Source of the DNA: a virus
Taxonomy: Duplodnaviria > Caudoviricetes
Virus record (IMG/VR): IMGVR_UViG_3300025018_000091
DNA length: 64,000 bases
Reading direction: 5' to 3' (one strand)
Notes under the pieces: generated by a model
What the model was told of the DNA's origin: nothing
Seen by the model: only the letters and a program-made list of their open reading frames with translations
The model's database searches: none
Program-made: the position numbers and the translations under genes
Part shown: positions 33,417 through 54,997 of the stretch, piece after piece
Numbering within the stretch: position 1 is the first letter of the stretch
Layout: the number at the start of each line of letters is the position of its first letter

Positions 33417-33762
33417 GGAGTAAATCTATAAGCGGAGTCCTGTCTATAAATCGAGACAATCATTAATCTTGGCGAACAATTACTCATTCGCTCCAGCGTC
33501 AACCCGGAAACTCAGACGAGTAGTCCTCAATCATTTCCTGTTCGACTTGCAGCACATAGGGTTTGCAAATGCCACTCATATCACTATGAGTGCGGTAGGC
33601 TCTTACCCTGCCTTTTCAACCTTACCATTTTACTGGCGGTATGTTTTCTGTTGCACTTTCCGTCACCTCACAATGCCTGGGTGTTACCCAGTATGTCACT
33701 CTTTGCTGCTCCGACTTTCCTCATATAACCGCCGGTTATATGCGATTGTCCAATCTACTCCC
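33417..33762 (-). ncRNA. rnpB: RNase P RNA, bacterial class A
   Basis: GAGGAAAGUCGG near the 5' end, GGAAAGUGCAACAGAAA, GGUAAGAGCC, ACAGGACUCCGCUUA near the 3' end, P1 GGAGUAGAU/AUUUACUCC. Confidence 0.93.
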
Positions 33763-33786: not shown

Positions 33787-33814
33787 AATATAATCACTTC
33801 AATCGCGATGTCAA
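33787..33814 (-). promoter_or_regulatory. Sigma70-like promoter TTGACA-N16-TATATT upstream of rnpB
   Basis: Consensus match. Confidence 0.65.
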
Positions 33815-35670: not shown

Positions 35671-36852
35671 TTAATTATAGGCTCCCATAATATCAAATCT
35701 ATCTTCTAATTTCTGAATATAAGCAGCTCTACCCGACTCTAATTCCTCTTCAAAATCTTCAGAAAGCCAATGTTTAGGAATTTCATATAATTCCCACTCA
35801 TCACCATTCTTCATAAGAATAATCATATCTTTAGTGTCTCTAAGACGAGGATAGTATTCAATTGTTAATGCAATAGAATCATGATAAACTGCCTTATCAA
35901 AAGAACCAACCTCTCCCTCATCAGCGCCTGGAAAATACCAAGTTCGATATTTCAAACTAAAAATTTTACAAATCTGCTGGGCTATATAAGTAATCCTATT
36001 ATGTAACAGGACATCATATTGACTTAATTTCTTGATAACTTCAGTGCGCTTTTCAAAAAACTCTTCATTTAACGGACTAACTTTACCAAAATCGTTCATT
36101 AACATTCTCCATGACAAAATGCATGTTGTATTTTCCCAGCGAAGCTGACCACTACAAATCCCTTAAAAGTATCTCCATCATCAACGGCTTCAGAAGCAAA
36201 CCTAAATTGTAGTGCCTGTTCGTTCATAGACTTAACACCCTCAAGTCTCCAGTTCTCAGGCTTTATTACCTCTAATTTAAGGAAGTCAACCATTCCACCA
36301 ACCTCTTCAAGCAACTCACCATAATCTCCATATGGAGCTATATTAATCATATCTTCAATAACAATATCCACATTATCATTAATGTAATCTGCTAGACGCT
36401 CATACATCTGATTAAAAGATAATCCAAGTTTTTCTTGCACTTTCTTTTCAATATCTTCAGCCTCATCCTCTTTTGTTATTTCTAAATCATTATATGACTC
36501 AATCATAATCTGTAGATTCCTTTTTATAAAAATCGTATAATGCTTGGTAATCTTTCTTAAAAACTTTCTTTGTGTCTTTAATCATTTGTTTTAAAATTTC
36601 TTTTTCTTCTTTCACATCTACGAAATCTACTTTTGTTTCTTTGGTATATTGTTCTTGCTGCCTAATCTCTCTAAAAGCAGCGGCTAAAGCGAATTGTTGA
36701 TAATCCATCCCAGCTATTACATCTGGGATACTAGGTTTTTCCCTTTTAACTTCCTCTAAATAAGAAGCGAAATCTTCTAGACAAACAGTTCTATTTTTTA
36801 CATAGTTCTCTCTATCTGTTATTCTATCTGGATCTTCCTTCTTCTTTTTCAT
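35671..36852 (-). CDS. Three overlapping hypothetical ORFs (35671-36117, 36099-36506, 36499-36852)
   Basis: Co-oriented acidic ORFs with overlapping ends. Confidence 0.55.
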
Positions 36853-37481
36853 CGAAAACTATAAGCCTTTTTTGTAATAGAAACAATATCACTAATATTT
36901 GCCATAGCTCCAATTCCAGTTGTCCCACAAGCCAATTTCTTAGAAATAGGCTCAACTAAAACAAATAGCCTCTTAGAAATTCCCGGAGAAACCCGTTCCA
37001 TATATCTGTGGAAATCAACATCACCATTTTTATAAAAACGATACATGTGTGTAAGTTCTTCTATATTACGATATGTTGCCGGATGATTCCACATATCAGT
37101 ATTCATTGCGGGAGCAACTACAATAGGCTTCTCTGCTTTCCATGCTCTAATTGTAGATGTCAATAGATTGTCAGACATTCCATGAGCAATCTTTGCTAGG
37201 GTGTTGGCTGTCAACGGTGCCACTACCAACACGTCTGCCCAATCTTTTAAATAGATATGAGGGATCATCATGGACCCGTCGTCGTTGACGCGCTCATACT
37301 TAATAGGAAATTCGTCTTGGTCGTGCCATGTGGGGCAATGATATGCTTCATCATCTACAAAATGTTTTGCAGAATCGGTCATAACAACATTAACTTCATG
37401 ACCATCATTCTGAAAAGCCATCACCATTTTAGGCGTAAGCTTTGCAGCAATGCTACCAGTAACTCCTAATAGAACTTTCAC
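36849..37481 (-). CDS. coaC: Phosphopantothenoylcysteine decarboxylase (HFCD flavoprotein, CoaC)
   Basis: VLLGVTGSIAA, HIYLKDWAD, APLTANTLAKIAHG, APAMNTDMW and KLACGTTGIGAM. Confidence 0.9.
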   Translation of the reverse strand: MKVLLGVTGSIAAKLTPKMVMAFQNDGHEVNVVMTDSAKHFVDDEAYHCPTWHDQDEFPIKYERVNDDGSMMIPHIYLKDWADVLVVAPLTANTLAKIAHGMSDNLLTSTIRAWKAEKPIVVAPAMNTDMWNHPATYRNIEELTHMYRFYKNGDVDFHRYMERVSPGISKRLFVLVEPISKKLACGTTGIGAMANISDIVSITKKAYSFR

Positions 37482-38191
37482 GGCTTCTCCCCTATAAAAA
37501 ATAACGTGTCATATAATCTTTTTGGCAAATCATTCCTATTACACCCAGAAAGATGATCTACTCCATTTTTATTGGAAACAATAAAAGCCCTATCTTTTGA
37601 CCATTCCAAACAATTTGCCACTATAATATCTGCACCTGAATGATGCATACTTTTTGTTGCAATATCCGCTAACTCTTCATCAGTCATTCCAACTTGAAGC
37701 TTGAACTTCACAAGCTTGCCTTTGAAGCCCCATGGATTACGAATCTTATCAATAATCTTTTCAGTAGGAACTAACTTCAAAAACAACTCATTAGCTGATG
37801 AAGAAATCTTCTTAGAAGAATCTATTTTCTCCATTCCAAAATATCCTTTTGAATTAGGAATATAAGTTCCCTCAACTTTATAGTCACTTACTGCCGCAGA
37901 ATGAATAACAACATCATAATCATTTGATATAATTTGTTCTTCCATTAAAGCACACAGCTCATCATATGTTTTATATGGAAGTATATTAATGTGCCTTATA
38001 TTTTCAACTAAATGATGATGTGGATTAGATGTAATTAACGTAACTTCATTTTGAAAATGAGAATCAATAGGCGCCTTATAACAAAAATATCTTGCTAATT
38101 CAGCTCCAGTTCTACCTTTAAAGATATTAGAAATACATCTTACCTTATCAATCATTACATTAGTAGAACCGGCAGTTATTAATATTTTCAT
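37478..38191 (-). CDS. coaB: Phosphopantothenate-cysteine ligase (CoaB)
   Basis: ILITAGST...DKVRCISN...GRTG, IHSAAVSDY and LVKFKL. Confidence 0.88.
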   Translation of the reverse strand: MKILITAGSTNVMIDKVRCISNIFKGRTGAELARYFCYKAPIDSHFQNEVTLITSNPHHHLVENIRHINILPYKTYDELCALMEEQIISNDYDVVIHSAAVSDYKVEGTYIPNSKGYFGMEKIDSSKKISSSANELFLKLVPTEKIIDKIRNPWGFKGKLVKFKLQVGMTDEELADIATKSMHHSGADIIVANCLEWSKDRAFIVSNKNGVDHLSGCNRNDLPKRLYDTLFFIGEKP

Positions 38192-39362: not shown

Positions 39363-39437
39363 TGGCAGGGATGCTAGGTGCTGCCCCTAATTTTGCGGAT
39401 TCAAAGTCCACGGTCCTAGCTGATGAACGACATCCCC
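39363..39437 (-). tRNA. tRNA-Gln(TTG)
   Basis: CT TTG AA, CCA. Confidence 0.88.
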
Positions 39438-40645: not shown

Positions 40646-40721
40646 TGGTGGTACATACTAGAGTTGAACTAGTATTTGCTGTTTATCAGACAACCGTCTT
40701 AGACCGTTGGACCAATGTACC
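40646..40721 (-). tRNA. tRNA-Ile(GAT)
   Basis: CT GAT AA, CCA. Confidence 0.9.
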
Positions 40722-40727
40722 ATAGAA

Positions 40728-40891
40728 GAAACAACTAAAATTTGAGTGATAGCATGCCTTTCGGCATCATCGCGTCTACCATTCCGCCACAATCTCAGAC
40801 CTCTCGGCACGTAGAGAAAGGAGGGATTCGAACCCTCATAACTGTTAAGTTAATGATTTTTCTAAATGTAATCACTACAGGCATTTGTTTC
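40728..40891 (-). ncRNA. Y RNA (YrlA-like) copy Y2, circularly permuted tRNA module
   Basis: GAAACAAAUGC/UUGUUUC; AGUGAU/AUCACU; T-arm GAGGG-UUCGAAU-CCCUC precedes D-arm GGCGGAAUGGUAGACGC. Confidence 0.85.
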
Positions 40892-40892
40892 A

Positions 40893-40968
40893 TGGTGGTG
40901 CCCCTCGGGATCGAACCGAGATATCAGGATCTTCAGTCCCGCGCATGAGCCATCACTGCCAGAGCACC
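40893..40968 (-). tRNA. tRNA-Phe(GAA)
   Basis: CT GAA GA, CCA. Confidence 0.92.
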
Positions 40969-40990
40969 ATGAAGTCATTTATACGAAAGA

Positions 40991-41066
40991 TGGTGGTACC
41001 TACTGGATTTGAACCAGTGACGCCAAGTTCTTCAGACTTGCGCTCTGCCAACTGAGCTAAGGTACC
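40991..41066 (-). tRNA. tRNA-Phe(GAA)
   Basis: CT GAA GA, CCA. Confidence 0.93.
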
Positions 41067-41162
41067 ATTGGTGGGGCATATTAGGAATCGGAGCCCCCGT
41101 CCCGAACATTGTTGTCATCCAACATCTCATATCGTAAGATATGATTTAATAATGTTGGCGTC

Positions 41163-42077
41163 CTAAATTTTAGTAAAATCTGCTGTGCTTCCAAAATCTA
41201 CATAAACATAATTACCATAAGTGTCTTGCATTATATTATCTGGATTCGCCTCAAAATCCCAAGGATCTAATCCAAGTTCACTCATCAATGTTTCTTTTAA
41301 GTTTTTAACTTTAACCGGATCTTTATTACCTTTAATTGGAAATACCCTGTCAGCAATATAATATGCTATCCATATTGGATTAGCAAATGAAGACACATCA
41401 CCAACTAATAACTTTTGACCTACCCTTACAGCTATTCCAGAATTATAAACATTGGTTATATGCTCTGACTTAATTGATTCCAATCCCTTAAGAAAAGAAA
41501 GAACCTTATCTTTTTTATTATCTGGTAACAAAAAGAACTTAATTATTTTATTATTACCATAATCATAAACTTCGCCTTCTGCACCCGCGCCAAGCATTTC
41601 CCCATGAGGAATTTGAACACCCAAAGATTTTTCAACTATATCTAATAAATCTGTATCATTAGATCTAAAACTATTATATAGTTCATCTAATTTCATTTCC
41701 CTTACAGGATTTTCATAAGATGTGCTCATCTCATCCATCTCTTTTAATTTATCAAGATTAGAAATGAACCTATCTAAATCAAATAAGGTTGCATTTAATG
41801 TTCTATCTACAACCCCTTTAACTCCTTGAATTAATATTAATTCAAGGAGTTAAAGGGGTTGTATTGTATTATAGATGTTCCATCCTTGAGTTTCAAAAAA
41901 GAGTATATATATTCGCCGGAAGAATCATTTATAAAATCTGAATCTGTAAATACAAAATTATATCCTTTGTATTGAGAACCATTTCCTTCTTTGACTTGTT
42001 GGGCAAAATTATCTAAATCACTAGAGGCTAATGCTAAAAAAATACTCTGCTTGTTTTAATAAACTAACTGCGCGCAT
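41163..42077 (-). CDS. Protein kinase-like protein; N-terminal third disrupted by an A7 frameshift and a perfect palindrome
   Basis: LGAGAEGEVY, KIIKFF, DFEANPDNIM and YVDFG; ATG 42077 (MRAVSLLKQAEYF) is in the kinase frame. Confidence 0.7.
41808..41863. repeat. Perfect 56-bp palindrome without a loop
   Basis: TACAACCCCTTTAACTCCTTGAATTAAT followed by its exact reverse complement. Confidence 0.95.
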
Positions 42078-42510
42078 AATATAATGGCGTGTTATTAATA
42101 ATTGACTGTACCAGTTTCACTCCTGGCATGGTGTACCTTTCCCAACTATTTCAGGGCGTTACTGTGACGAATTTCACCATAAAGGAATAGCCATCAGATG
42201 CCAGTCAATTCCAGCGCTTCAATCGAGGTCGGTTCCTCGTACCATAACAGTCATGGGTATACTATTGGACTTGCACCAATTCTTCACCTCGGGAAAGAGG
42301 GAGTGCTTACTACTTACACTAATATATACTTGATATGTACCTCGGATTTGCACCGAAACTGACGGCTCAGCCGTTATGCAGCTCTTACATCAATACATAT
42401 GCCTTATCTACTTACTGAGTCGGACTCAAATAATATATAAGTTTATGATGTCTGTACACAACAAATATAAACTTGGGGTTCCCTATTCGAATATTCTACG
42501 GAAGTAGATT

Positions 42511-42587
42511 TGGTTGGACAGGTGGGAGTTGAACCCACTTCTAGATGTTTATAAGACATCCCTCCATGACCGATTGAGTTCTGTCCA
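42511..42587 (-). tRNA. tRNA-Ile(TAT)
   Basis: GATGT-CT TAT AA-ACATC, CCA. Confidence 0.88.
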
Positions 42588-42599
42588 ATGATCATTTTA

Positions 42600-42676
42600 T
42601 GGTCGTATAGGTGGGAATCGAACCCGACTTCTAACTGCTTGTAAAACAATCCTCCATACCAATTGAGTTCTATACG
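42600..42676 (-). tRNA. tRNA-Val(TAC)
   Basis: TT TAC AA, CCA; body is a paralog of the adjacent Ile(TAT). Confidence 0.85.
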
Positions 42677-42680
42677 ATAA

Positions 42681-42755
42681 TGGCACCCCTGAGCGGAATC
42701 GAACCGCCCTCAATAGCGTGACAAGCTACCCGCCTCACCAGATGCGTACAAGGGT
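42681..42755 (-). tRNA. tRNA-Asp(GTC)
   Basis: TT GTC AC, CCA. Confidence 0.92.
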
Positions 42756-43041
42756 ATTCTAAGCATGAATAAAACCATGCCAGAGGTTATACATTATATG
42801 TGCCATCTATCATAGATTTCAAAGTAGTTAATACTTCAATCTTACTAGGATAGCTGACAACAAATGTATTATGCTCATAACTAGCAATTCCAACATATTT
42901 TTGTGTTCGATTGTTATGACTCAACGTTATATCATAATCACACTTATTATACCAATCTAGTATTTCTAGCTTATTCATACATTCTCCATGTTAGATAAAT
43001 CTTTAGTATAAGATAATATGCATTGTTAATTACAAACAATT

Positions 43042-43117
43042 TGGTGGGACCAGAGGGATTTGAACCCTCATCAAACAGATTAAGAGTCTGCTATGTTTCC
43101 ATTGACACCATAGTCCC
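43042..43117 (-). tRNA. tRNA-Lys(CTT)
   Basis: CT CTT AA, CCA. Confidence 0.92.
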
Positions 43118-43271
43118 ATACAATTACTACAAGTTCGTTGGCAACAGCGCTTCTTCGCTTCTCTACCTGTCTTATTGAGTTCATCAATTGTGCAACTTAC
43201 ACCAAGTAATTGCAAACACACGATACATCAGAGGCTGGTTAAACTATCACTTGAGTATCTTAGCGTGTCAG

Positions 43272-43342
43272 CGGAACTAGGGGGAATCGAACCCCCGCTT
43301 ATAGATCGACAATCTACAGTCCTACCATTAAACGATAGCTCC
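43272..43342 (-). tRNA. tRNA-Asp(GTC)
   Basis: TT GTC GA; no encoded CCA. Confidence 0.88.
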
Positions 43343-43344
43343 TA

Positions 43345-43449
43345 ATATCAGACAAAATATGTAAACATAAGGGAACCATCCCGTCAAGTTGGAATCGAAC
43401 CAAACTAGTTGTTGATTTGGTACAATGTAATGCTTACTGCATTCTGATA
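43345..43449 (-). ncRNA. Y RNA copy Y3
   Basis: AUAUCAGAAUGC/UUGUCUGAUAU; GUAAGCAU/AUGUUUAC; T-arm UUGG-UUCGAUU-CCAA. Confidence 0.8.
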
Positions 43450-43525
43450 TGGTGGGACCAGAGGGGGTCGAACCCTCACCGAACAGATTAAGAGTCTGGC
43501 ATGCTCCCATTAACACCACGGTCCC
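43450..43525 (-). tRNA. tRNA-Lys(CTT)
   Basis: CT CTT AA, CCA. Confidence 0.92.
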
Positions 43526-43650
43526 ATTCGATTACGCTGGAGTCGGCAATAGCAGATCTTTACTATATCTCTCTCCAGTCCTAGAGTCAAGGTCTAGGCG
43601 CTCTTACGCTACATAACCAAGGCTGTTTTATTCGAAGTCAACAACCTTTT

Positions 43651-43690
43651 TAGTAGGAAAGGGTGGATTTGAACCACCTTTTACTTTCCC
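43651..43690 (-). ncRNA. tRNA minihelix (acceptor stem plus T arm only)
   Basis: GGGAAAG-UAAAA-GGUGG-UUCAAAU-CCACC-CUUUCCU-A. Confidence 0.65.
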
Positions 43691-43693
43691 ATA

Positions 43694-43920
43694 ATAAACG
43701 ACAAAAATTTGCTAAGACACCGGCACATTGATGGTCTTTTCAGATTACATCCGTTCGCCCCGCACTTTTGAGTCAGTGACTCTCTAGAAGACAGCATTAC
43801 CTGTTACCTTCGACTTATGAATATTACTATTCAAATTAGCGCCATCGCGTAATTCCTCACGGAATCAGTAGCTACCTTAGGGTCATTATTGATATGTAGT
43901 CCTAACTTGCATTCGTTTAT
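43694..43920 (-). ncRNA. Long Y RNA copy Y4 (227 nt) with a non-tRNA internal domain
   Basis: AUAAACGAAUGC/UUGUCGUUUAU; GUUAGGAC/GUCUUAGC; GGACUACAU; internal GNRA hairpins. Confidence 0.75.
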
Positions 43921-43997
43921 GGCTCCCGCACTAGGGTTTTCACCTAGAACCTCGCACCCTAATCTGGGTGGTACTCTGTATTTTGAGCTATACGGAA
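43920..43997 (-). ncRNA. tRNA-like element with a 6-nt anticodon loop
   Basis: D arm UAGCUCAAAAUACAGAGU, CACCC-AGAUUA-GGGUG, T arm CUAGG/CCUAG, GCCA. Confidence 0.6.
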
Positions 43998-44157
43998 TGG
44001 TCAACGGAAAAGGATTCGAACCTTTGACTACCCAGCACACTCAGAGTAACTATCATCGTCCTCAACATAATATATCGATCTATCATATTTGGTGTCGAAT
44101 AATCTTTAAACTAAATGCTTCTACTACTTGGTGCTCTGACCTCTGAGCTATCCGTCG
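43998..44157 (-). ncRNA. tRNA with about 90 nt inserted in the anticodon loop
   Basis: CGACGGA/UCCGUUG acceptor, canonical D and T arms, ACCA. Confidence 0.7.
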
Positions 44158-44162
44158 ATAAA

Positions 44163-44292
44163 GTAACAACAAGGATTTGAAGAGACTAGTTGTACTAGCG
44201 CCAGCTTCCCCATATAGTGGGGAATAAAGGAATCGGACCTTAATCGTTTATTGTATCAAAATAAAATGTAATCCCTTACATGCATTTGTTAC
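44163..44292 (-). ncRNA. Y RNA copy Y5
   Basis: GUAACAAAUGC/UUGUUAC; AAGGGAU/AUCCUU; T-arm AAGG-UCCGAUU-CCUU; UUCCCCA/UGGGGAA hairpin. Confidence 0.8.
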
Positions 44293-44293
44293 G

Positions 44294-44376
44294 TGGTTTC
44301 CCCGCTAGGATTTGCACCTAGATTTTCTACTTAGTACGTACTTAAATAGATGTCCTAATTATTAGACGACAGAAAA
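44294..44376 (-). ncRNA. tRNA-like element whose anticodon loop is a self-complementary 15-nt hairpin
   Basis: UCUAU-UUAAGUACGUACUAA-GUAGA; D and T arms intact; CCA. Confidence 0.6.
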
Positions 44377-44452
44377 ATACAATGCTTCTTCCTGGCTTCT
44401 ATTCCAGAATCTTCGCCCTAAGCGAGATAATAATTTATACTAAAAAAGCATT

Positions 44453-44529
44453 TGGTGCTTCCGTTCGCCTTTCGATAGCGAAATCTCCCAGGTTCATTCC
44501 GGGCGTTTTACCATTTAAACTACAGAAAC
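44453..44529 (-). ncRNA. tRNA-like element with aberrant anticodon and T loops
   Basis: GUUUCUG/CGGAAGC acceptor, D arm, CCCGG-AAUGAAC-CUGGG, 9-nt T loop, ACCA. Confidence 0.55.
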
Positions 44530-44531
44530 AT

Positions 44532-44676
44532 AAGTGACAAGAAATATAAAGATTTTATTCGGCGCCCTGCACTTTTTCCTTTCGGACCACTTGTGCTATG
44601 ATTAGCTTTCACTAACCAGCAGGATTCGATACCTGCACCATCGGACATTTTTGATGTAATCCTTATTGCATTCACT
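44532..44676 (-). ncRNA. Y RNA copy Y6
   Basis: AAGUGAAUGC/UUGUCACUU; AUAAGGAUU/AAUCUUUAU; T-like arm GCAGG/CCUGC. Confidence 0.8.
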
Positions 44677-44763
44677 TGGCTCTCAGGGCTGGATTCGAAC
44701 CAACGGTGCATTTCTACGGCGGATTAACAATCCGCTGCCTTGACCTGACTAGGCTACCTGAGA
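44677..44763 (-). tRNA. tRNA-Asn(GTT) with a long variable arm
   Basis: GCGGA-TT GTT AA-TCCGC; extra arm CGUAGAAAUGCAC; CCA. Confidence 0.82.
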
Positions 44764-45083
44764 ATATTATACTCAATAAAAGACTCATTAAATATTGACA
44801 CATTTAGTGGAACTAACAACACTCCTTCATGAATCTCGGCATGACAATTATTACAAACTAAGATGCACTTTCGTAATTCAATTACGATTTTATTCCAACT
44901 TTTAGGACTTCCTCTAACTGCTCCCAAACCAAATTCTTTTTTAGAAGGATCTAAATGATGTAAAGATAATGCAGAAGAACATTTATTATATCCACAGAAG
45001 CAACATTTACCTCCCATTGCAAGTATAATTCTCTCTTTTGTGCGTTTTCTCCAACGCTTAACTTTCTCAGATTGCTTACTCAT
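44754..45083 (-). CDS. HNH endonuclease
   Basis: CCFCG...LSLHHLDPSKKEF...CILVCNNCHAEIH. Confidence 0.88.
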   Translation of the reverse strand: MSKQSEKVKRWRKRTKERIILAMGGKCCFCGYNKCSSALSLHHLDPSKKEFGLGAVRGSPKSWNKIVIELRKCILVCNNCHAEIHEGVLLVPLNVSIFNESFIEYNILR

Positions 45084-45097
45084 ACTTAGATATATAG

Positions 45098-45168
45098 CGA
45101 CCCCCCTCGGACTTGAACCGAGATTCGAAACTTAACAGGCTCCCGTTCTACCTTTGAACTAAAGGGTC
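45098..45168 (-). tRNA. tRNA-Asn(GTT)
   Basis: CT GTT AA. Confidence 0.85.
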
Positions 45169-45173
45169 AATTA

Positions 45174-45456
45174 TTGATGACAAAATTTGTAAAGATAATG
45201 GCTTTATCTTAAGTAACACTGACGTGCCTCAAGAGCCATAGTGTAAGTATCCCCTCAACACCATATGGAATGTAATTTATCCATTAACATCTTTTGGAAT
45301 ATACAATTAATACTCACTGCATATTTATGAGACATATAGTTTTCTAACGGGTTTACCATTCATTATGTTTCGGAATGGCGGGCATTTCTTATAAATAAGC
45401 ATTACCCATTTATTATCGGTTGTTGTATTTATGTAATCCTTACATGCATTCATCAA
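45174..45456 (-). ncRNA. Long Y RNA copy Y7 (283 nt) with a non-tRNA internal domain
   Basis: UUGAUGAAUGC/UUGUCAUCAA; UGUAAGGAU/AUCUUUACA; GGAUUACAU. Confidence 0.75.
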
Positions 45457-45532
45457 TGGTGGGACCGGAGGGAATTGAACCCTCAACTTTCTGGTTAAAA
45501 GCCAGCTACTCTGCCAATTGAGTTACGGACCC
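45457..45532 (-). tRNA. tRNA-Lys(TTT)
   Basis: CT TTT AA, CCA. Confidence 0.93.
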
Positions 45533-45761
45533 GATTTGCGGATATCATCCGCAAGGGAAACTATTTTTTAGTTGTTTGTTTGGTACTCTTAGAACTCTTG
45601 CTAGAGTTTTTATTGAGTTTTCGCCAACATGGTCGGCAATATTTACCGCCAAGTGAACGAGCAATCTCACATGCTTTACACATAGTTCACCTCCTCTCAT
45701 TGAGTGGAGGTCACTAACTGTCAACTAAATAAACCATGAATTCTCCTTGAATAGAATTATT

Positions 45762-45906
45762 GTAGCAACGAAAATTTGTGAGACTATTTTTAACGTGTGC
45801 TGCCGCTACACTAACCCAAGATATAAAGTAAATTGGTCTTGGGTGCGGGAATCGGACCCGCCCTTCGTGCGCCCAATGCAATGTAATCCCAACATGCATT
45901 TGCTAC
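45762..45906 (-). ncRNA. Y RNA copy Y8 with a full permuted tRNA module
   Basis: GUAGCAAAUGC/UUGCUAC; T arm GCGGG/CCCGC; closed acceptor ACCCAAGA/UCUUGGGU; then D arm UAGUGUAGCGGCAGCAC. Confidence 0.87.
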
Positions 45907-45907
45907 T

Positions 45908-45982
45908 TGGTGGTCTCACTAGGACTTTCACCTAGACCGCCTCCTGAAATGGAGGTATTCATAAAACTTAAACTACAAGACC
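45908..45982 (-). ncRNA. tRNA-like element with a 6-nt anticodon loop
   Basis: GGUCUUG/UGAGACC acceptor, CCUCC-AUUUCA-GGAGG, CUAGG/CCUAG, ACCA. Confidence 0.6.
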
Positions 45983-45983
45983 A

Positions 45984-46081
45984 TGACGCTATAAACTTAT
46001 TTATTTGGTAGCGTCAGCGGGACTCGGACCCACAACCTCGTTCTTATAAATGAAATGTAATCCCTACAAGCATTTGCTATA
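45984..46081 (-). ncRNA. Y RNA copy Y9, 5' part only (closing strand not found)
   Basis: AUAGCAAAUGCUUGUAGGGAUUACAU, T arm GUGGG/CCCGC, UGACGCUA/UAGCGUCA hairpin. Confidence 0.65.
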
Positions 46082-46154
46082 TGGTCGCGAGACTGTGGGA
46101 TGAGCACAGATTTCCACCCTAAAAGTGGCGAGCTATCATTTACTCCATCTCGCA
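46082..46154 (-). tRNA. Candidate ochre suppressor tRNA (anticodon TTA)
   Basis: CCAC-TT TTA GG-GTGG; all stems pair; non-canonical T loop CTCATCC; ACCA. Confidence 0.5.
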
Positions 46155-46155
46155 A

Positions 46156-46227
46156 TGGATGCGGAGGCAAGAATTGAACTTGCAGAATCTAGCTTATGAG
46201 ACTAGGTTGGGACCGTCTCTCCCCGCT
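46156..46227 (-). tRNA. tRNA-Met(CAT)
   Basis: CT CAT AA, 1:72 mismatch, CCA. Confidence 0.82.
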
Positions 46228-46252
46228 ATAAAATAATGTATGATATACATCA

Positions 46253-46326
46253 TGGTGGAGCGTAGGGGTTACCCTCCCCTTCTTCTGCGGTGCAAGCGCA
46301 GCGTATTCGTATCCTACTCACGCCCC
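46253..46326 (-). tRNA. tRNA-Ala(TGC)
   Basis: CT TGC AC, G3-U70 pair, CCA. Confidence 0.88.
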
Positions 46327-46385
46327 ATATTATCTATGCATATAGTGGAATAAAATTAACTTGCACAAAATAGGAAAACTCCACT

Positions 46386-46880
46386 ATGGCTAAAACGAAA
46401 ACTAACTGTTTAAATTGTAACAAAGAAATTTATGTTGAAAACAAAGAAATTAAAAGAGGTTTTGGAAAATTTTGTAATTCCAAATGTTCTAGTGAACATA
46501 GAATTCGTAATAAACCAAAATTGCTAGATAATGTAAATTGTGCCCTATGCAATAAATCTTTTCATATGACCGAAAGTAAAAAAAAGTTATCAAAATCTGG
46601 ATTATATTTTTGTTGTCGAACACATAAAGATGAAGCACAACGCATTGGTGGTATAAAAGAAATTATGCCGCTACATTATGGCACCGCCAAACCAGACAAT
46701 TCTCGTTCTTATAGAAGAATAGCTTTCAATGAAAAAGCTAAAATGTGTGAAAGATGTGGATATGATCAACACGAAGCTGCGATAATTGTTCACCACAAAG
46801 ATAGCAACAGAGACAATAATAATCTAGATAATCTTGAAATATTGTGTGCTAATTGTCACGCTATAGAACATTGGAGCTGA
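46386..46880 (+). CDS. HNH endonuclease
   Basis: FCNSKC repeats; IIVHHKDSNRDNNNLDNLEILCANCH. Confidence 0.88.
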   Translation: MAKTKTNCLNCNKEIYVENKEIKRGFGKFCNSKCSSEHRIRNKPKLLDNVNCALCNKSFHMTESKKKLSKSGLYFCCRTHKDEAQRIGGIKEIMPLHYGTAKPDNSRSYRRIAFNEKAKMCERCGYDQHEAAIIVHHKDSNRDNNNLDNLEILCANCHAIEHWS

Positions 46881-46903
46881 TGCCCGTGGAACTACATCTC
46901 ATT

Positions 46904-46977
46904 TGGTGACGCATAGGAGAGTCGAACTCCTCTTCGTAGATTGAAAGCCTAATGTCCTACCGATAGACGAACGCGCC
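46904..46977 (-). tRNA. tRNA-Glu(TTC)
   Basis: CT TTC AA, CCA. Confidence 0.9.
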
Positions 46978-46983
46978 ATAACT

Positions 46984-47059
46984 ATGATAAAATCACCGGA
47001 GTTGCGCCGGATATTGTCCTCACGAACAATATTGAATACCATCGACCCTAATTCTATCA
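46984..47059 (-). ncRNA. tRNA-like element with an extended anticodon arm capped by GUGA
   Basis: UGAUAGAAU/AUUUUAUCA, UAUUGUUC-GUGA-GGACAAUA, CCGG-CGCAACU-CCGG. Confidence 0.5.
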
Positions 47060-47064
47060 ATTTG

Positions 47065-47137
47065 TCAGAGAGAGAGGATTTGAACCTCCACCACATGGAT
47101 CCAAACCATGGACGCTACCAGATTACGCTACTCCCTG
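47065..47137 (-). tRNA. tRNA-Pro(TGG)
   Basis: TT TGG AT. Confidence 0.9.
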
Positions 47138-47247
47138 ATTGAGTCGCCCTAAGAGATATGTTCTAAACTAACTCCTTGGGCGGATTAGGTTTAGCCAATC
47201 AATCTCTATTATTCCCAAACCTATGCGGGCTGAACATAGGTCTTTCG

Positions 47248-47323
47248 TGGTCGGAATGAGAAGACTCGAACTTCCGATACCTTGTACCCAAAACAAGTGC
47301 CATAGCCACTAGGCGACATTCCG
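47248..47323 (-). tRNA. tRNA-Pro(TGG)
   Basis: TT TGG GT, CCA. Confidence 0.92.
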
Positions 47324-47424
47324 ATATACTTCTGCTCTCCAACTTTCTGTTACGCTTCAAAAGTAAAAGGTAACTTCTATTAATAAGTATCGTACGTTAG
47401 ACTTGGAATTAAGTACGTATACTT

Positions 47425-47508
47425 TGGTGGGGACGGTAGGATTCGAACCTACATTGCTCAAGACGGCATCTTTATCGGATGCTGAGAGACCCATCTCTCT
47501 TCGCCCCC
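47425..47508 (-). tRNA. Class II tRNA with atypical loop CG ATA AA
   Basis: GCATC/GATGC stem, long variable arm, canonical T arm, CCA. Confidence 0.6.
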
Positions 47509-47550
47509 ATTGGATATTAAATTATCAGCGATCAAGACGTCCCATGACGT

Positions 47551-47639
47551 TGGTGCCGCCTGGTGGAATCGAACCACATAGCCACTCGGGGCGCCTGATT
47601 TACAGTCAGGAGATCCTCCCAGGAATCTAGTCAGTCGGC
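47551..47639 (-). tRNA. tRNA-Tyr(GTA)
   Basis: CT GTA AA, long variable arm, CCA. Confidence 0.9.
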
Positions 47640-47803
47640 ATTATATTTTGAATTGAATGTATTTATCTCCTAAAGTTATAGAATTTTTAGTTATTAAAGG
47701 TACTGAAACTACATAATTATTACTAATAAAGTAATAAATTGCTGCCGCCAACCCTACATCTCCCTGTTTTTTAGTATTTACTTGATTAAACATGAGACAA
47801 TAT

Positions 47804-47871
47804 TAACTGACAAAATATAGTGTAGATGTTTTTGGTCAAATATCAATGTAATCCACACAAGCATTCAGTTA
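47804..47871 (-). ncRNA. Minimal Y RNA copy Y10 (stem module only)
   Basis: UAACUGAAUGC/UUGUCAGUUA; GUGUGGAU/AUCUACAC. Confidence 0.75.
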
Positions 47872-47961
47872 TAGTAAAATTAAACGAATTTAATCGAATA
47901 ACTTTATATCGAACCCTACCAATATTACAGCATACAAATATTGATGATACTTAGGAGTAAT

Positions 47962-48613
47962 ATGAGGCAAGGTAAAATAGCATCTATCACAAACGAAGAA
48001 TTAACAACCCTTATACAAAACAATATATCATTGAAAAACGTTTTGTTATTTTTAAATCTACATCCGAGTAGTGGAAAATAGAAGATTAAAACAAAAATTA
48101 GAACAAGAGAATATCAATTACGATCATATCAAAAATGGTTCGGGATACGATCCCTCCAAAATACATACATTTAGAAAGCATGTATCATTGAATGATGTTC
48201 TTACTCTAAACTCTTCTTATAGTCCAAGATTACTTAAGAAGCGTCTTATAAAAGAAGGTTTATTATTCAACTATTGTAATGTATGTAATATACAGCCACT
48301 TTGGAATAATCTACCACTTCAATTACAGTTAGATCATATCAATGGTAACAATAGAGATAATAGGTTGGAAAATCTAAGATTATTATGCCCTAATTGTCAT
48401 TCCCAGACAGACACATTCGCTGCCAAAAATAAAATCAAAAAGAACAAACCTACAAAAATAGTACAACCACGAAAAACAAAGATAACTTGGCCAGATGACA
48501 ATGAGTTGCTAGATTTAGTAACAAACTCAAATTTTGTTCAAGTTGCCGCAACACTTGGTGTAAGTGATAATGCTATTAGAAAAAGATTAAAAAGAGCGGG
48601 GCTAATCAAATAA
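47962..48613 (+). CDS. HNH homing endonuclease; frameshift in the A4 run at 48075-48078
   Basis: Paralog of 18330-19058 including the upstream-frame N-terminus MRQGKIASIT; LQLDHINGNNRDNRLENLRLLCPNCH. Confidence 0.88.
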
Positions 48614-48619
48614 TTAGCT

Positions 48620-48691
48620 TGGCAGGTGTGGTAGGTAACGATCCCACTAGTAGAAGTTTTGGAGGCTTCCCTCTCACCTTGAGTCACACCC
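48620..48691 (-). tRNA. tRNA-Trp(CCA)
   Basis: CT CCA AA, CCA. Confidence 0.85.
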
Positions 48692-48877
48692 AAATAATTA
48701 CTATAATTGTAACTTATAATAATCATTCGATAAATTTCGGATTCATTATAAAATAAATCTAAGTGATTTTGGACGTCACTTACATCCCTATTTACCTAGA
48801 GGAAAATAACGATTCCCCTAATCTCTATGCATCGATGCATACTTTGTTAATTAATGTTACACTTAATTAACAAAGCT

Positions 48878-48990
48878 TGGTGCGGAAGGTTGGAATTAAA
48901 CCAACAACCTTCGGGTTAATCATTTAAACTCTAGTGTCGACGTTATCCATCAACTCAAGTCCCGGCGCTCCTTCTTCAAGCCGCTTCCAC
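48878..48990 (-). ncRNA. Met-like tRNA with about 38 extra nt (a hairpin) in the anticodon loop
   Basis: GUGGAAG/CUUCCGC acceptor, D arm GCUU/GAGC, CGGG/CCCG stem, insert helix GUUGAUG/CGUCGAC, T arm, ACCA. Confidence 0.7.
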
Positions 48991-48993
48991 ATA

Positions 48994-49058
48994 AAGGTAA
49001 CAAAAAGTGTAAAGATTGTTTTTTTAATGGTTAGATGTAATCCTTACGGCATTTACCT
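48994..49058 (-). ncRNA. Minimal Y RNA copy Y11
   Basis: AAGGUAAAUGC/UUGUUACCUU; GUAAGGAUU/AAUCUUUAC. Confidence 0.75.
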
Positions 49059-49134
49059 TGGTAGGAAAGGTTGGACTTCAACCAACGTCCTGACAACCTT
49101 TACGTTGCCTGCTCTTTCTCTGAGCTACTTCCCT
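49059..49134 (-). ncRNA. tRNA-like element with a 6-bp anticodon stem and 6-nt loop
   Basis: D arm GCUC/GAGC, GGCAAC-GUAAAG-GUUGUC, T arm, ACCA. Confidence 0.6.
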
Positions 49135-49390
49135 ATATAATCAAACGAGATAATTAATCCTACTATCTATATATCAATATGCCTAAAAGTTTTATCCAGT
49201 TGTTATTTTTATTACAAGACCACCATTTATTATCAAATTAAGTCTTATTGGTCTCCAATCTTGAGTAAGCATATATGAGTTGCCATCTCTCTCAGCAACA
49301 CGAAAATTTATGTTTTTCTCTTTTAAAGTCGCTATTACATCCTCTTCTTTTTTCATAAGAAGACTCCCTATATCAACTCCAACATCTACC

Positions 49391-49493
49391 ATTGTAACCT
49401 CTTCTCACCGCCTGTCAAGCCCAGCGTTTTTCTTTTTTAACACCGCGCCCCGTTGCGTACACCATACTATAACACCGCCTCTCCGCCCGTCAA
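49391..49493 (-). promoter_or_regulatory. Tandem sigma70-like promoters heading the RNA array: TTGACA-N16-TACAAT (49391-49418) and TTGACG-N16-TATAGT (49466-49493)
   Basis: Near-consensus hexamers in a GC-rich context. Confidence 0.75.
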
Positions 49494-50394: not shown

Positions 50395-50911
50395 TCATTG
50401 TGTCCTCATCTTCTTAGCTAACGCCTCCTCAACATAAGGCGGAACAAACTTACTCACATCTCCACCAAACTTGTAGATTTGTTTAACCATAGACGAAGAC
50501 ACGACTGCCAATTTAGGATCCGTTGGAATGAATACTGTCTCAATTTTCGGCGCTAAAACTTTATTAATGCCAGCCAAATTAATTTCATATTCGAAATCTG
50601 AAACAGATCTAATTCCACGAATTAATATCTTCGCCATATGTTCTCTAGCAAAATCAGTTAACAACTTATCAAACGCTATAGCGTAAACAGAAGTTGGTAT
50701 ATATGGTGGCTTATCAGGATCTCCAAACTCACTTACTAAGAATTTAGTAATTAATTCCTGTCTTTCCTTAACAGAAAATAAAGGAGTTTTTCCTGGGTTA
50801 ATACCAATTCCCATAATCAATGTATCACAAAACTTCAAACTCCTATTGAAGATATCAATGTGACCATTCGTAATCGGATCAAAAAGATCCTGCGTAGATT
50901 GCAGTCACCAT
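50395..50911 (-). CDS. coaD: Phosphopantetheine adenylyltransferase (CoaD); frameshift in the A5 run at 50881-50885
   Basis: MVTAIYAGSF then DPITNGH in the adjacent frame; KTPLFSVKER, LIRGIRSVSDFEYE and VSSSMVK. Confidence 0.92.
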
Positions 50912-52521: not shown

Positions 52522-52908
52522 CTATATCAGTTTAAAACTTAATTTCTCTTGATGAGATAATTGTTTAATTTTGTATTCGAGCTTCATTGCTTCAGATTTT
52601 GTGGCGCAAAGATAATAAGAAACAATCCTAACTGGTCGTCTGGCTCTTGTATATTTTGCGCCCTTTCCATTATTGTGGATTTTTATTCTTTTCGCTAGAT
52701 TATTCGTAGCTCCCGTATATAATGTCCCATCGGCACATAATACAATATATGCTGCCCATTGTATTCCAATCTCAATAAGCTCTCGGCATGACTTGCAATA
52801 ATGCTGTTTTTTATCACAAGCAATTGCCATGGTCCTGCATTCACCTTGACCACAATTTAAACAAGGTGCATCACAGTAAGTATCATGTTCCCATGCAGTA
52901 TTCATCAC
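52522..52908 (-). CDS. GIY-YIG nuclease (UPF0213-like)
   Basis: YIVLCADGTLYTGATNNLAKRIKIHN.GKGAKYTR. Confidence 0.9.
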   Translation of the reverse strand: MMNTAWEHDTYCDAPCLNCGQGECRTMAIACDKKQHYCKSCRELIEIGIQWAAYIVLCADGTLYTGATNNLAKRIKIHNNGKGAKYTRARRPVRIVSYYLCATKSEAMKLEYKIKQLSHQEKLSFKLI

Positions 52909-53756
52909 ACACCAAACACTTGTTTGAAAGTCGTATATATTGGCGTACCTTCTCTTGAATCATACACTGCAAAACATACATGACCAAAATCAGGGATATC
53001 AACCAATGCTTGCTTGAAAGCATTGGCTACCATATCTGGATCATTTCCAAACGCCCCACATCCCCATGCTCCAAGAATTATATTCTCATGTTGATAAAGT
53101 CTGGCAATATGTAGAATTTTCAATATCCTATTATAAATAACAGAATATAAAACCTTTTCATCTATATCCTCCATTGACCTTACGTTTGGGGCAGGTGCTG
53201 AAATTATAGATAAATAATATGGATTTTCAAGGAACTGATTATATTCATCCCTAAAGAAAGGAACATTGGGAGAATAGATTATATTATCTGTATAGAATGT
53301 ATCATCACAAAGAATGTTCTCATTATAGAACACAGGCTTACGTTTAGTACAAACATATAATCCAGAACGCCTACAAAGGTCTTCTTCTTGAGCAACCGCT
53401 CCAGATAAAAAGCCGCCGCCAACATTACGAGCAGAAGCAAAATTCAATGCCACTATATCTTTTTTATTATCAGCAAGCAAACGAACCGCTGCTTGTGTGG
53501 TTGTTTCATTTACAACATCTACGATAGGGGCTGTCACGCTGGCTACAGGCGAAGTAGGTTGAGCATAAATGGCAGGAGTTACATCCTGAAATAGTTTGGT
53601 ATGATCAATAGCTTCATCCAAAGCAAAAGAAATGTCAACAATATTTCCGCTTGGTGCAATATATTGTTTATGTTTTAATACATCTAGCGTATCTTTTGCG
53701 AGGGAAACATTCTTTGTCCTAGCATTCATTAATGCAACACCATCACGTTTAATCAT
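52905..53756 (-). CDS. TIGR02452 family macrodomain (bacterial PARG-like)
   Basis: LNFASARNVGGGF, AQEEDLCRRS and ILGAWGCGAFGND. Confidence 0.92.
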   Translation of the reverse strand: MIKRDGVALMNARTKNVSLAKDTLDVLKHKQYIAPSGNIVDISFALDEAIDHTKLFQDVTPAIYAQPTSPVASVTAPIVDVVNETTTQAAVRLLADNKKDIVALNFASARNVGGGFLSGAVAQEEDLCRRSGLYVCTKRKPVFYNENILCDDTFYTDNIIYSPNVPFFRDEYNQFLENPYYLSIISAPAPNVRSMEDIDEKVLYSVIYNRILKILHIARLYQHENIILGAWGCGAFGNDPDMVANAFKQALVDIPDFGHVCFAVYDSREGTPIYTTFKQVFGV

Positions 53757-54319: not shown

Positions 54320-54997
54320 TCATTTCTCTGCATATTTATTTCCTAATTTGGAACAAGATTTGCATTGTGTTGATTTATCATTCAATAAATCAAATGCCGA
54401 TACAATCGCTTCTTTATCACATTCGCAACGGCAATTGTATTTGTTACAACCATCAACTTTACTAATAATTGTCCAAGAATTGAACTTATCACCAACATTA
54501 AGATAAGTTCGTTTCTTTGGTGTAGTGAAAGCTTTCAGCGGCTCCCAGCCTTCTGATATTCTATCTTTTGCCAAAGTATATTGAATATTATATATTTCAC
54601 ACCACTCTACCATTGGTTTGGTTTCAGAACCAATGGTAATTAATTTGGTGGTCCTACGATTGCGAGCCTGCTGTTTATCAGTTGCCCAGCGACAATTATC
54701 AGGAGAATAATTCCCATCACTATCGATCCTATCAATAGAATGTTTGGCAGATGGCTTGAGCCCCATATCTTGATGGAAATTATCAAATCCATCAACACCA
54801 AGCCACCTATCACAAACAGTTATTCCTCTACCACCATAATTCTCATAAAAAGGAGTTTGTGGATAATAACACCTACGTATCATATGATACCAAGCATTAT
54901 ATTCTTTAGTCCTTGAATTTGAATATTTGTACTTAAATCTTGAGGGAAGATTAAAGTTTAATCTGCTCGATTGTGTTGACCCATAAGTCTGCATCAT
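54320..54997 (-). CDS. HNH-type homing endonuclease
   Basis: YGGRGITVCDRW, SIDRIDSDGNYSPDNCRWAT.KQQARN. Confidence 0.88.
   Translation of the reverse strand: MMQTYGSTQSSRLNFNLPSRFKYKYSNSRTKEYNAWYHMIRRCYYPQTPFYENYGGRGITVCDRWLGVDGFDNFHQDMGLKPSAKHSIDRIDSDGNYSPDNCRWATDKQQARNRRTTKLITIGSETKPMVEWCEIYNIQYTLAKDRISEGWEPLKAFTTPKKRTYLNVGDKFNSWTIISKVDGCNKYNCRCECDKEAIVSAFDLLNDKSTQCKSCSKLGNKYAEK

Follow-up and report, generated by a model that had tools for sequence, protein, structure and literature searches.

In animal mitochondrial DNA, transfer RNA (tRNA) genes act as punctuation, and RNase P and RNase Z cut at the tRNAs and so release the flanking RNAs. tRNA-like folds also define the ends of neighbouring RNAs in MALAT1/mascRNA, by way of RNase P, and in the tRNA-small nucleolar RNA (snoRNA) transcripts of plants and the tRNA-microRNA transcripts of murine gammaherpesvirus 68 (MHV68), by way of RNase Z. 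The t-elements of plant mitochondria are tRNA-like processing signals (PMC1920247). The tRNA region of phage T4 transcribes the small stable RNAs RNAC and RNAD (PMC3014915), and GOLLD is cited for tRNA arrays of Mycobacterium (ref. 61 of PMC9569102). Phage Y RNAs have been described in mycobacteriophages, CcrColossus and Bacillus phage G (PMC12135203). In the survey that defined the bacterial family YrlA, Y RNA genes lay within 4 kilobases (kb) of a Ro60 (TROVE) gene (Chen et al. 2014, PMC4201824), and RNase P cuts inside the YrlA of Mycobacterium smegmatis, which then carries CCA (PMC4201824). The release of neighbouring RNAs under the guidance of tRNAs, phage Y RNAs and phage Ro60 are all known already. 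Here, a stretch of 64,000 nucleotides (nt) from the IMG/VR virus record IMGVR_UViG_3300025018_000091 (Duplodnaviria; Caudoviricetes), referred to as the window, was analysed, in which YrlA-like Y RNAs are set into an array of tRNAs and tRNA-shaped elements.

The anatomy of this array is solid, and from sequence we infer the mechanism that would go with it. The Y RNAs would be made within long precursors of tRNA, Y RNA and messenger RNA (mRNA), probably from several promoters, and would be excised by the machinery that matures the tRNAs. A probability of about 60% was assigned to this reading.

Junctions between Y RNAs and tRNA-shaped elements

An earlier reading of the window, made without database searches (the sequence-only reading), had counted eleven Y RNAs. 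Eleven copies, called Ya to Yk here, were found on the minus strand, all YrlA-like, of which ten are complete and Yc is only a partial 5' half. The claim that ten of the 11 start right after an upstream CCA was confirmed, with a range of -1 to 3 nt past the encoded CCA; the exception is Yb, and the gaps of the other ten are 0, 2, 2, 1, -1, 2, 1, 1, 2 and 1 nt. Since the chance of meeting such a CCA at a random array position is 6.5%, the binomial p for 10/11 is 1.4e-11. On the 3' side, seven of the 11 stop short of the next acceptor stem by 2-6 nt, their coordinate pairs being those that had been read before, and a tRNA or tRNA-like flank is present on both sides of 7/11 window Y RNAs. Spacing is closer on the 5' side of the Y RNAs (median 1, range -1 to 3) than on their 3' side (median 4, range 2-7; Mann-Whitney p 8e-9), and closer too than from one tRNA to the next in the window (2-110 nt; p 4e-4). 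At the 5' ends of the tRNAs and tRNA-like elements, U is found at position -1 in 34 of 41 cases against a background of 32.5% (p 4e-11), and in six of the seven elements that follow a Y RNA. A U at this position is the leader preference of bacterial RNase P.

The elements directly 5' of the Y RNAs are of two kinds. Five are canonical tRNAs, namely Lys-UUU, Asn-GUU, Lys-CUU, Phe-GAA and Gly-GCC (48-69 bits). The other five are tRNA-shaped elements whose unconstrained folds are cloverleaves ending in NCCA, with an acceptor stem of 7 base pairs (bp) and a 7-nt T loop; gene finders overlook them or flag them as odd, and the anticodon loops of the shapes 49134, 45982 and 43997 have 6 nt. A CCA is encoded in all ten of these Y-preceding elements, as it is in 26 of 30 tRNAs predicted by ARAGORN. 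The element before the first short Y RNA (the tl49134 type) has a cloverleaf conserved in five genomes, with compensatory changes in the acceptor and T stems. Across these genomes its D arm is nearly invariant and its CCA invariant, and its anticodon loop has 6, 7, 8 or 10 nt. Because the arms and the CCA are conserved while the length of the anticodon loop drifts, the pattern is as would be expected for an element kept for its shape and not for decoding. A role of the tRNA-like elements as decoys for anticodon nucleases was rejected as their main explanation, the anticodon loops being their least conserved part.

Such non-decoding shapes could also stay joined to the Y RNAs behind them (Ya, Yc, Yd, Yg and Yh), giving composite RNAs built on a linear YrlA plan. 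This would suit the definition of YrlA, in which a Ro60-binding stem is coupled to a tRNA-like domain (PMC4201824), and the short Y RNAs of the Ya type, which have no internal tRNA-like module, always stand 0-1 nt after the conserved non-decoding cloverleaf in five genomes. However, canonical tRNAs, for which a free CCA end is a necessity, are followed by the same 0-3 nt junction; an NCCA, which would be needless in a permanent fusion, is still encoded in the non-decoding elements; and most long Y RNAs already have an internal tRNA-like domain of their own. A permanent union of the two is thus considered unlikely. The free CCA end is needed for charging, so that a cut at the five canonical tRNA-Y junctions, if these tRNAs function as tRNAs, is close to a logical necessity.

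The junctions were then compared with those of related phages. A scan of IMG/VR by the 14-base 5' motif of the Y RNAs was non-specific and gave single chance matches, and a search based on Ro60 was used instead. It yielded eight related IMG/VR loci (Ro60 68-77% identical), of which the arrays of five, G001 to G005, were analysed; the related contigs span 267-359 kb. Identity of Ro60 to that of the window is 68-71% in G002-G005 and 77% in G001, the closest relative. Starts at -1 to 3 nt after a CCA, seen for 10/11 Y RNAs in the window, were found for 7/8 in G002, 7/8 in G003, 4/5 in G004, 4/6 in G005 and 0/6 in G001. Pooled, G002-G005 give 22/27 and, with the window, 32/38, for which the p of 2e-32 is nominal, the copies being related. 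Sixteen Y RNAs of G002-G005 end 2-7 nt before the next tRNA. The junction geometry is kept in the relatives even where the flanking tRNA differs, and junctions stay at 0-3 nt in genomes that have diverged to about 60-80% sequence identity.

The closest Ro60 in GenBank is that of the cultured Myxococcus phage Mx1 (OR576727.2; 52.7% identity). In the tRNA array of Mx1 a YrlA-like RNA (32 bits) is set 3 nt behind a tRNA-like element and 1 nt ahead of a tRNA, and a gap of 3 nt separates tRNA-Ile from a second Y RNA that follows it. The tRNAs of Mx1 have no encoded CCA, and its Y RNAs begin just past the discriminator. Gaps of 1 and 4 nt separate a tRNA-Gly, a Y RNA and a tRNA-Thr on a GC-rich (58%) contig of 252 kb. 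The spacing is looser in Streptomyces phage Paradiddles, where a YrlA-like match lies 16 nt after a tRNA.

Tight spacing could in principle be a legacy of the way in which the array grew, by tandem duplication and shuffling through homing endonucleases; it would then be inherited and play no role in processing, and Y RNAs, singly or in small groups, would have their own promoter and end. The array does bear marks of such growth: three of the tRNA shape-Y RNA units are evident paralogues, the arrays and their surroundings contain four HNH genes, G001 (L131 3900-5800) contains four tandem Yb-type units with a period of 142 nt beside two Yi-type copies, and promoter-like matches are slightly more numerous than in shuffled sequence (55 observed vs 37.6 +/- 6.8 expected). 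On the other hand, at least eight different upstream elements precede the Y RNAs of the window, the 0-3 nt junctions persist in the diverged genomes, in Mx1 and in the GC-rich phage, the tRNA-to-tRNA spacers of the same arrays are not equally tight, and the units have no terminator-like sites between them. An origin of the spacing in array growth alone is accordingly judged quite improbable.

Proposed maturation and the phage RNase P RNA

Excision of the Y RNAs by the tRNA maturation machinery would need two kinds of cut. RNase P, either that of the host or the phage RNA with a host protein subunit, would cut at the 5' end of the tRNA or tRNA shape following a Y RNA. This would leave a Y RNA trailer of 2-6 nt, which 3'-to-5' exonucleases could trim back to the terminal stem. 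An endonuclease of the RNase Z/BN or RNase E type would free the CCA end of the upstream tRNA, and the same cut would create the 5' end of the Y RNA. Many bacteria have no 5'-to-3' trimming activity, and because of this the Y RNA would have to abut its 5' cut; a 5' gap tighter than the 3' gap would follow, because 3' trailers can be trimmed and 5' leaders cannot. The non-decoding tRNA shapes would be retained as processing handles, in which the acceptor stem, D arm, T arm and CCA are kept and the anticodon loops drift; the features retained in acceptor, T arm and CCA would be those that RNase P reads. The sequence-only reading had the precursor cut at the cloverleaves, and RNase P could indeed account for the 3' sides of the Y RNAs, but not for their 5' ends, since a cut at or just after the CCA needs an endonuclease other than RNase P. 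The precursor and each of the cleavages are putative, and the ribozyme at work may be that of the phage rather than that of the host.

The phage does encode its own RNase P RNA, as had been claimed, at a site outside 40646-49134. It is a full-length bacterial class A RNase P RNA (RF00010) at 33413-33761 on the minus strand, which scores 278.2 bits against a gathering score of 100 and covers model positions 1-367. Its P4 strands are GAGGAAAGUC and ACAGGAC..GCUUA, and CCGGGUU holds the CCA-binding GGU motif of L15. The GGU motif of RNase P RNA pairs with the CCA ends of tRNAs, and the CCA encoded in most window tRNAs matches that motif in the phage RNA. A promoter-like site, TTGACA-16-TATATT (11/12), is located about 25 nt upstream at 33787-33814 on the minus strand. 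Neither a blastn search with the RNase P RNA nor a megablast search with the array gave a match in 50,697 GenBank phage records. An RNase P RNA is present in G002, G003 and G004 too, downstream of their arrays, and none was detected in G001. Two genes of the CCA-adding/poly(A) polymerase type occur in four of the five related contigs (not in the G005 fragment).

RNase P RNA genes recur in phage tRNA arrays. When IMG/VR was scanned for exact copies of the class A core motif, 15 viral contigs were returned, in 13 of which an RNase P RNA was confirmed at 248-295 bits. At least nine of the confirmed RNAs lie inside dense tRNA arrays with 8-27 tRNAs per locus, and in seven of these arrays (L138, L141, L143, L146, L147, L149 and L151; 255-277 bits) only 0-4 nt separate the RNase P RNA from a tRNA beside it. 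In L151, for example, the order is tRNA (6254-6327), RNase P RNA (6330-6684) and tRNA (6687-6770), with 2 nt on either side. Here tRNAs closely flank a non-tRNA RNA of another kind, as an independent case. Five of the RNase P-bearing records (L143, L146, L147 and L151 among them) were searched for a TROVE gene and gave none; two of the five are virtually complete genomes of 340-369 kb. Because such arrays occur without a TROVE match, phage RNase P RNA accompanies large tRNA arrays as such and not Y RNAs.

The same records bear on the possibility that the Y RNAs serve the tRNAs and not the reverse. Ro60 bound to the Y stem of a precursor would then bring a 3'-to-5' exonuclease such as PNPase to the pre-tRNA, and the aim would be the trimming or quality control of unusual phage tRNAs before the Y RNA is released or degraded; both the recruitment and its supposed aim are regarded as very improbable. 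A Y RNA is the tether between Ro60 and PNPase in Deinococcus radiodurans (PMC4201824), the corresponding phage complex of Ro60, Yrl and PNPase assembles in vitro (PMC12135203), and many window tRNAs have an aberrant structure, such as an odd T loop, an anticodon loop of 6 nt or an insert. But the sequence holds no specific support for such a service, the Y RNAs of G001 have no tRNA neighbours, and arrays with RNase P RNA and without a TROVE match exist, two virtually complete genomes among them, so that large tRNA arrays do not need Ro60. A wider generalization of tRNA-guided excision has somewhat less than an even chance of being correct, namely that large phages use the tRNA fold as a general mark for RNA processing. 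Dummies and minihelices would be kept only to direct RNase P and 3'-end nucleases, which would release Y RNAs or RNase P RNA, and the phage ribozyme would add cleavage capacity. If this were true, many phage 'pseudo-tRNAs' would be processing signals and not decayed genes.

Two sigma-70-type promoter-like sites are located upstream of the array at 49391-49493 on the minus strand, TTGACG-16-TATAGT (10/12) and TTGACA-16-TACAAT (11/12). Both had been noted before and are the best-scoring in the region, and no other site carries the extended motif TTGACRGGCGG without a mismatch. A single polycistronic transcript had been proposed from them. No terminator-like sites were found between the Y RNAs of the array, which agrees with that proposal, but one precursor is doubtful because HNH genes lie inside the array on the opposite strand and further promoter-like sites are present. 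One of these, TTGACT-17-TATAGT (10/12), is at 43562-43590 on the minus strand, just upstream of a tRNA-Lys. Several transcription units are likelier than one. As to a promoter and a terminator for each Y RNA, an arrangement that had been named as speaking against tRNA punctuation, extra promoter-like sites are thus present and terminator-like sites were not found. Among sequencing runs, none from RNA was listed for a 2.8-kb query from the array. With a query of 1.8 kb, an estuary metatranscriptome run that contained 5% of its words gave one contig of 222 nt, 97% alike, which runs over the junction at 44677 and covers tRNA-Asn together with the initial 94 nt of Yf. It was not counted as evidence of a precursor, because a contig proves no single transcript, carry-over of DNA is possible and the contig comes from a relative.

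Several observations weigh against maturation by tRNA processing. Downstream of four of the 11 window Y RNAs, no tRNA begins within 7 nt. The units tl45982-Yd, tl44380-Yg and tl43997-Yh have a T arm in common and resemble tandem duplicates, so the junctions cannot all be taken as independent. An upstream tRNA is missing from Yb and from each of the six Y RNAs in G001, and one G001 copy is 81% identical to Yi, which is itself flanked by tRNAs in the window and in G002. Other routes to the Y RNA 5' end must therefore exist, and G001 is a natural contrast case for the making of Y RNA ends. The two opposite-strand HNH genes and the extra promoter-like sites speak against one precursor. As for the enzymes, RnpA (PF00825) had no match in the five related contigs, which are fragments or incomplete genomes, nor among 40 open reading frames (ORFs) scanned in the window, so that the phage RNase P RNA would rely on the host for its protein subunit; no RNase Z gene was found in the same five contigs, whose incompleteness leaves the absence of either gene unproven. 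Plain minimum-free-energy folding was modular in 2/4 tRNA-Y-tRNA segments, a result that is uninformative either way. The punctuation proposed by the sequence-only reading is thus partly supported, indirectly, by the junction geometry, the lack of terminator-like sites, U(-1) and the RNase P RNA, and tRNA flanking of the Y RNAs is usual, not obligatory.

Y RNA copies, tRNA shapes and other genes of the window

The Y RNAs were recognized by a 5' motif, a terminal stem and a covariance model. The motif RAATGC..GGATTACAT (RAATGC, 3-10 nt, WTACAT) occurs 11 times in the window, always on the minus strand. In 10/11 copies the 5-8 nt preceding it are complementary to a stretch 57-285 nt downstream, and a U-rich CAAAUUUUUG-like motif precedes the 3' strand of this terminal stem. 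When ten copies of short and medium length, drawn from six genomes, were aligned, compensatory (double) changes were found at six of seven terminal-stem pairs. The covariance model built from this alignment finds 11/11 window copies, with every window match on the array strand, and 5-8 further copies in each relative. Yd aligns to the whole Rfam YrlA model (RF02553) at 28.9 bits (local E 2e-4; gathering score 69), and the alignment places AAUGC, both stems, the T arm, the acceptor-like hairpin and the D arm. No window copy reaches the gathering threshold of 69 bits; Yd is the best, and the others were not listed. Because the scores fall below this threshold, the window RNAs were treated as YrlA-like, and by sequence they are best described as a divergent subfamily and not as curated members. 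Yc, Yd, Yf, Yg, Yj and Yk have an internal tRNA-like domain (T arm, acceptor-like hairpin, D arm), and Yi has part of one; Ya and Yb, with minimal stems and about 65 nt, are without it. The central modules are highly variable among copies. MAFFT and RNAalifold resolve the terminal stem only, and the second stem was seen by eye and in single folds and is unalignable across copies.

All copies lie on the minus strand. Ya (48994-49058; ~65 nt, 69.1 bits, E 9e-12) begins 0 nt after a CCA and ends 4 nt before tl48990. Yb (47804-47871; short, 63.1 bits) is the sole window copy without an upstream tRNA, and the 40 nt upstream of it are conserved in G001. The partial Yc (45983-46079; 21.4 bits, E 0.097) comprises a 5' strand, a T arm and an acceptor-like hairpin with CCA. 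Being a 5' half, it lacks its own 3' strand and could pair with that of Yd only. Yd (45762-45906) is YrlA-like and has an internal permuted tRNA-like domain with an acceptor hairpin carrying NCCA. Ye (45173-45456) is long, ~284 nt, and stands 0-1 nt after a CCA and 4-6 nt before tRNA-Asn. The minimum-free-energy fold of the YrlA-like Yf (44532-44676) shows a stem, a loop, a stem and three arms. The YrlA-like Yg (44163-44292) and the long Yh (43694-43919) were each identified by terminal stem and covariance model. Yi (43345-43449; ~105 nt) has orthologues 81-82% identical in G002, where it is flanked by tRNAs, and in G001, where it is not. Yj (40728-40891) is YrlA-like with 43.3 bits, and Yk (21613-21746) starts 1 nt after tRNA-Gly(GCC) and has a U-rich tract after its stem. 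In the permuted domains of Yd and Yc the acceptor-like hairpin has 7-8 bp and a loop starting with NCCA, like that of M. smegmatis YrlA, and by analogy with that RNA Yd and Yc may also be nicked internally. A possible twelfth, differently built Y-like RNA is located at 21885-21978 (minus strand; model match E 0.012), where the motif ATGC..GGAATACAT stands 1 nt past the CCA of tRNA-Gly(UCC) and is followed by a tRNA-like element (Rfam tRNA 38.9 bits) and then by ~40 A.

The spacer elements are on the minus strand as well. The tRNA-shaped, non-decoding tl49134 (49059-49134; 42.8 bits, ends in ACCA) directly precedes Ya, and tl48990 (48878-48990; ends in ACCA) has an inserted arm. Further tRNA-shaped elements are found at 48620-48691 (ends in GCCA), 45908-45982 (tl45982; ACCA, 35.3 bits), 44454-44529 (ACCA), 44293-44380 (tl44380; ACCA, with a T arm paralogous to those of tl45982 and tl43997) and 43920-43997 (tl43997; GCCA). 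The bare minihelix that had been read at 43651-43690 is present: it consists of a 7-bp acceptor and a 5-bp T arm with the T loop UUCAAAU, followed by ACUA and not ACCA. An encoded CCA is carried by tRNA-Lys(UUU) (45457-45532; 65.9 bits), by a tRNA-Asn(GUU) with a long variable arm (44677-44763), and by tRNA-Lys(CUU) (43450-43525), tRNA-Phe(GAA) (40893-40968) and tRNA-Ile(GAU) (40646-40721); no CCA is encoded in a second tRNA-Asn(GUU) (45097-45168) or in tRNA-Asp(GUC) (43271-43342). The tRNA-Gly(GCC) that precedes Yk is at 21748-21822. Only one public sequencing run, a 2017 aquifer metagenome, contains the queried stretch completely, and the phage may come from it. A low-depth variant contig in this probable source metagenome skips 88 nt (window 44297-44386) that match tl44380, so a co-occurring strain may lack this spacer element.

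ARAGORN found 29 tRNAs in the window, all on the minus strand, and Rfam adds three. Three tandem tRNA shapes on the minus strand, each ending in CCA (46326-46253, 46226-46156 and 46154-46082), are detected neither by ARAGORN nor by the Rfam tRNA model. The first of these is Ala-UGC-like, with a UGC anticodon loop, the Ala identity pair G3:U70 and an odd T loop, AGGGUAA. An element at 39437-39363 (minus), which both tools likewise leave undetected, reads as Gln-UUG. A tRNA-Thr(UGU)-like gene (43998-44157, minus; ends in ACCA) was found in the intron mode of ARAGORN and has an insert of 86 nt in its anticodon loop, which is too short for a typical group I intron. From their sequences, some tRNA-like elements (Ala-UGC, Gln-UUG and the intron-bearing Thr-UGU) look like real divergent tRNAs and not mere punctuation marks. 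Because divergent tRNAs go undetected by ARAGORN and the Rfam tRNA model, the tRNA counts given by standard tools for this phage are probably too low. UAA, a stop codon, would be read by one divergent tRNA of the set at 46082-46326 and 39363-39437, whose anticodon may be UUA.

The motif GGCATATTGATATATAG is found at 49165-49181 (minus), before the first tRNA-like element of the array, and also before the Yb-type repeat units of G001 (L131 ~5553-5569, 5411-5427 and 5269-5285); it may be a shared promoter or processing element. The Yi-type copies of G001 lie behind a repeated leader of ~110 nt with TTGATA-18-TACAAT, microsatellite-like repeats are nearby, and the Y RNA region of this genome has few tRNAs. 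In Mx1, the locus L136 8134-8700 (OR576727.2 ~45096-45660) contains at least two unannotated YrlA-like Y RNAs, one of which overlaps a coding sequence annotated as 'hypothetical protein' (locus 8562-8684). The region also contains an unannotated transfer-messenger RNA (tmRNA; 9684-10061) and several tRNA-like matches without annotation, and the genome paper of Mx1 makes no mention of these Y RNAs.

The window is AT-rich, with ~33% GC. The orthologue of Ro60 (TROVE and Ro60 vWA domains), the presumed protein partner of the Y RNAs, is encoded at 54951-56522 on the minus strand; the nearest Y RNA copy on the same strand is 5.9 kb away and the farthest 33 kb. The HNH genes inside the array on the opposite strand are at 46386-46880 and 48071-48613. 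Another HNH ORF within the array, at 44754-45083, has its stop end overlapping the tRNA-Asn at 44763-44677 by 10 nt. Because this ORF ends 10 nt inside the tRNA, its stop codon would be lost on RNase P cleavage at the tRNA-Asn 5' end. Between tRNA-Ile and the next ORF, about 600 nt at 41900-42510 (minus) hold no ORF or Rfam match, but strong local hairpins occur at several places in them, one being a tRNA-like T arm (42334-42399); at 41812-41859 there is a perfect palindrome of 20 bp. The window also codes for EF-Ts (19612-20550), an intein-containing UvrD-like helicase (813-3371), a split Dfp (flavoprotein, DFP domains) and a cytidylyltransferase-like gene, for which the coenzyme A pathway is a query, the nicotinamide adenine dinucleotide (NAD) salvage proteins NAMPT and NMNAT-Nudix, and two erasers of ADP (adenosine diphosphate)-ribose, a microbial PARG and an ADP-ribosylglycohydrolase. 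The genes from Dfp onwards jointly occupy 36849-38191, 50395-50838, 9221-13522, 52905-53756 and 3460-4377.

Comparison with described systems

The literature searched, with key reviews and supplements outside its coverage, contained no description of tRNA-bracketed Y RNAs, of non-decoding tRNA shapes as spacers of phage arrays, or of a phage-encoded RNase P RNA. If the proposed cuts are real, they would explain how many different phage Y RNAs can be made without a promoter and a terminator for each, and would offer a concrete and testable route for the biogenesis of bacterial Y RNAs, which has so far been poorly understood. They would also give a function to tRNA-shaped elements that gene finders overlook or call pseudo-tRNAs, and a reason why phages carry a gene for the RNase P ribozyme, which recurs in the phage tRNA arrays of IMG/VR. 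Because the arrangement is present in the cultured phage Mx1, the reading can be tested at the bench now.

As in the mitochondrial system, other RNA genes of the window abut tRNA genes with almost no spacer, cloverleaves would be the cleavage marks, and mRNAs are interleaved, as seen in the 10-nt overlap of the HNH ORF 44754-45083 with a tRNA. Unlike it, the window belongs to a bacterial-type phage with an RNA-based class A RNase P, encoded CCA and probably several promoters; the RNAs released would be Y RNAs, and some of the marks are non-decoding tRNA shapes or a bare minihelix. The use of a non-decoding tRNA-like fold as a processing signal beside another RNA would be shared with MALAT1/mascRNA and with the t-elements. 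These two cases, the tRNA-snoRNA transcripts and MHV68 are eukaryotic or organellar and involve one or two junctions each, whereas both ends of many phage RNAs would be set in this way in the window.

Among phages, T4 resembles the window in having small non-tRNA RNAs in a tRNA gene region. Its two RNAs are of unknown role and are accompanied by neither Ro60, an RNase P RNA gene nor tRNA-shaped dummies, whereas the window has 11 members of one recognizable family and the gene of a partner protein nearby. GOLLD is likewise a non-coding RNA co-located with mobile tRNA arrays; the junctions of the window are tight and regular, and none such were found reported for GOLLD in the literature searched. 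With bacterial YrlA (PMC4201824) the window RNAs share a terminal stem with AAUGC, of the Ro60-binding type, an internal permuted tRNA-like domain and a Ro60 gene on the same strand. In M. smegmatis YrlA the RNase P cut is internal, whereas in the window tRNAs outside the Y RNA would define its ends. The known YrlA cases have one or two Y RNAs within 4 kb of Ro60; in the window, 11 copies lie 6-33 kb away from it, inside a tRNA array.

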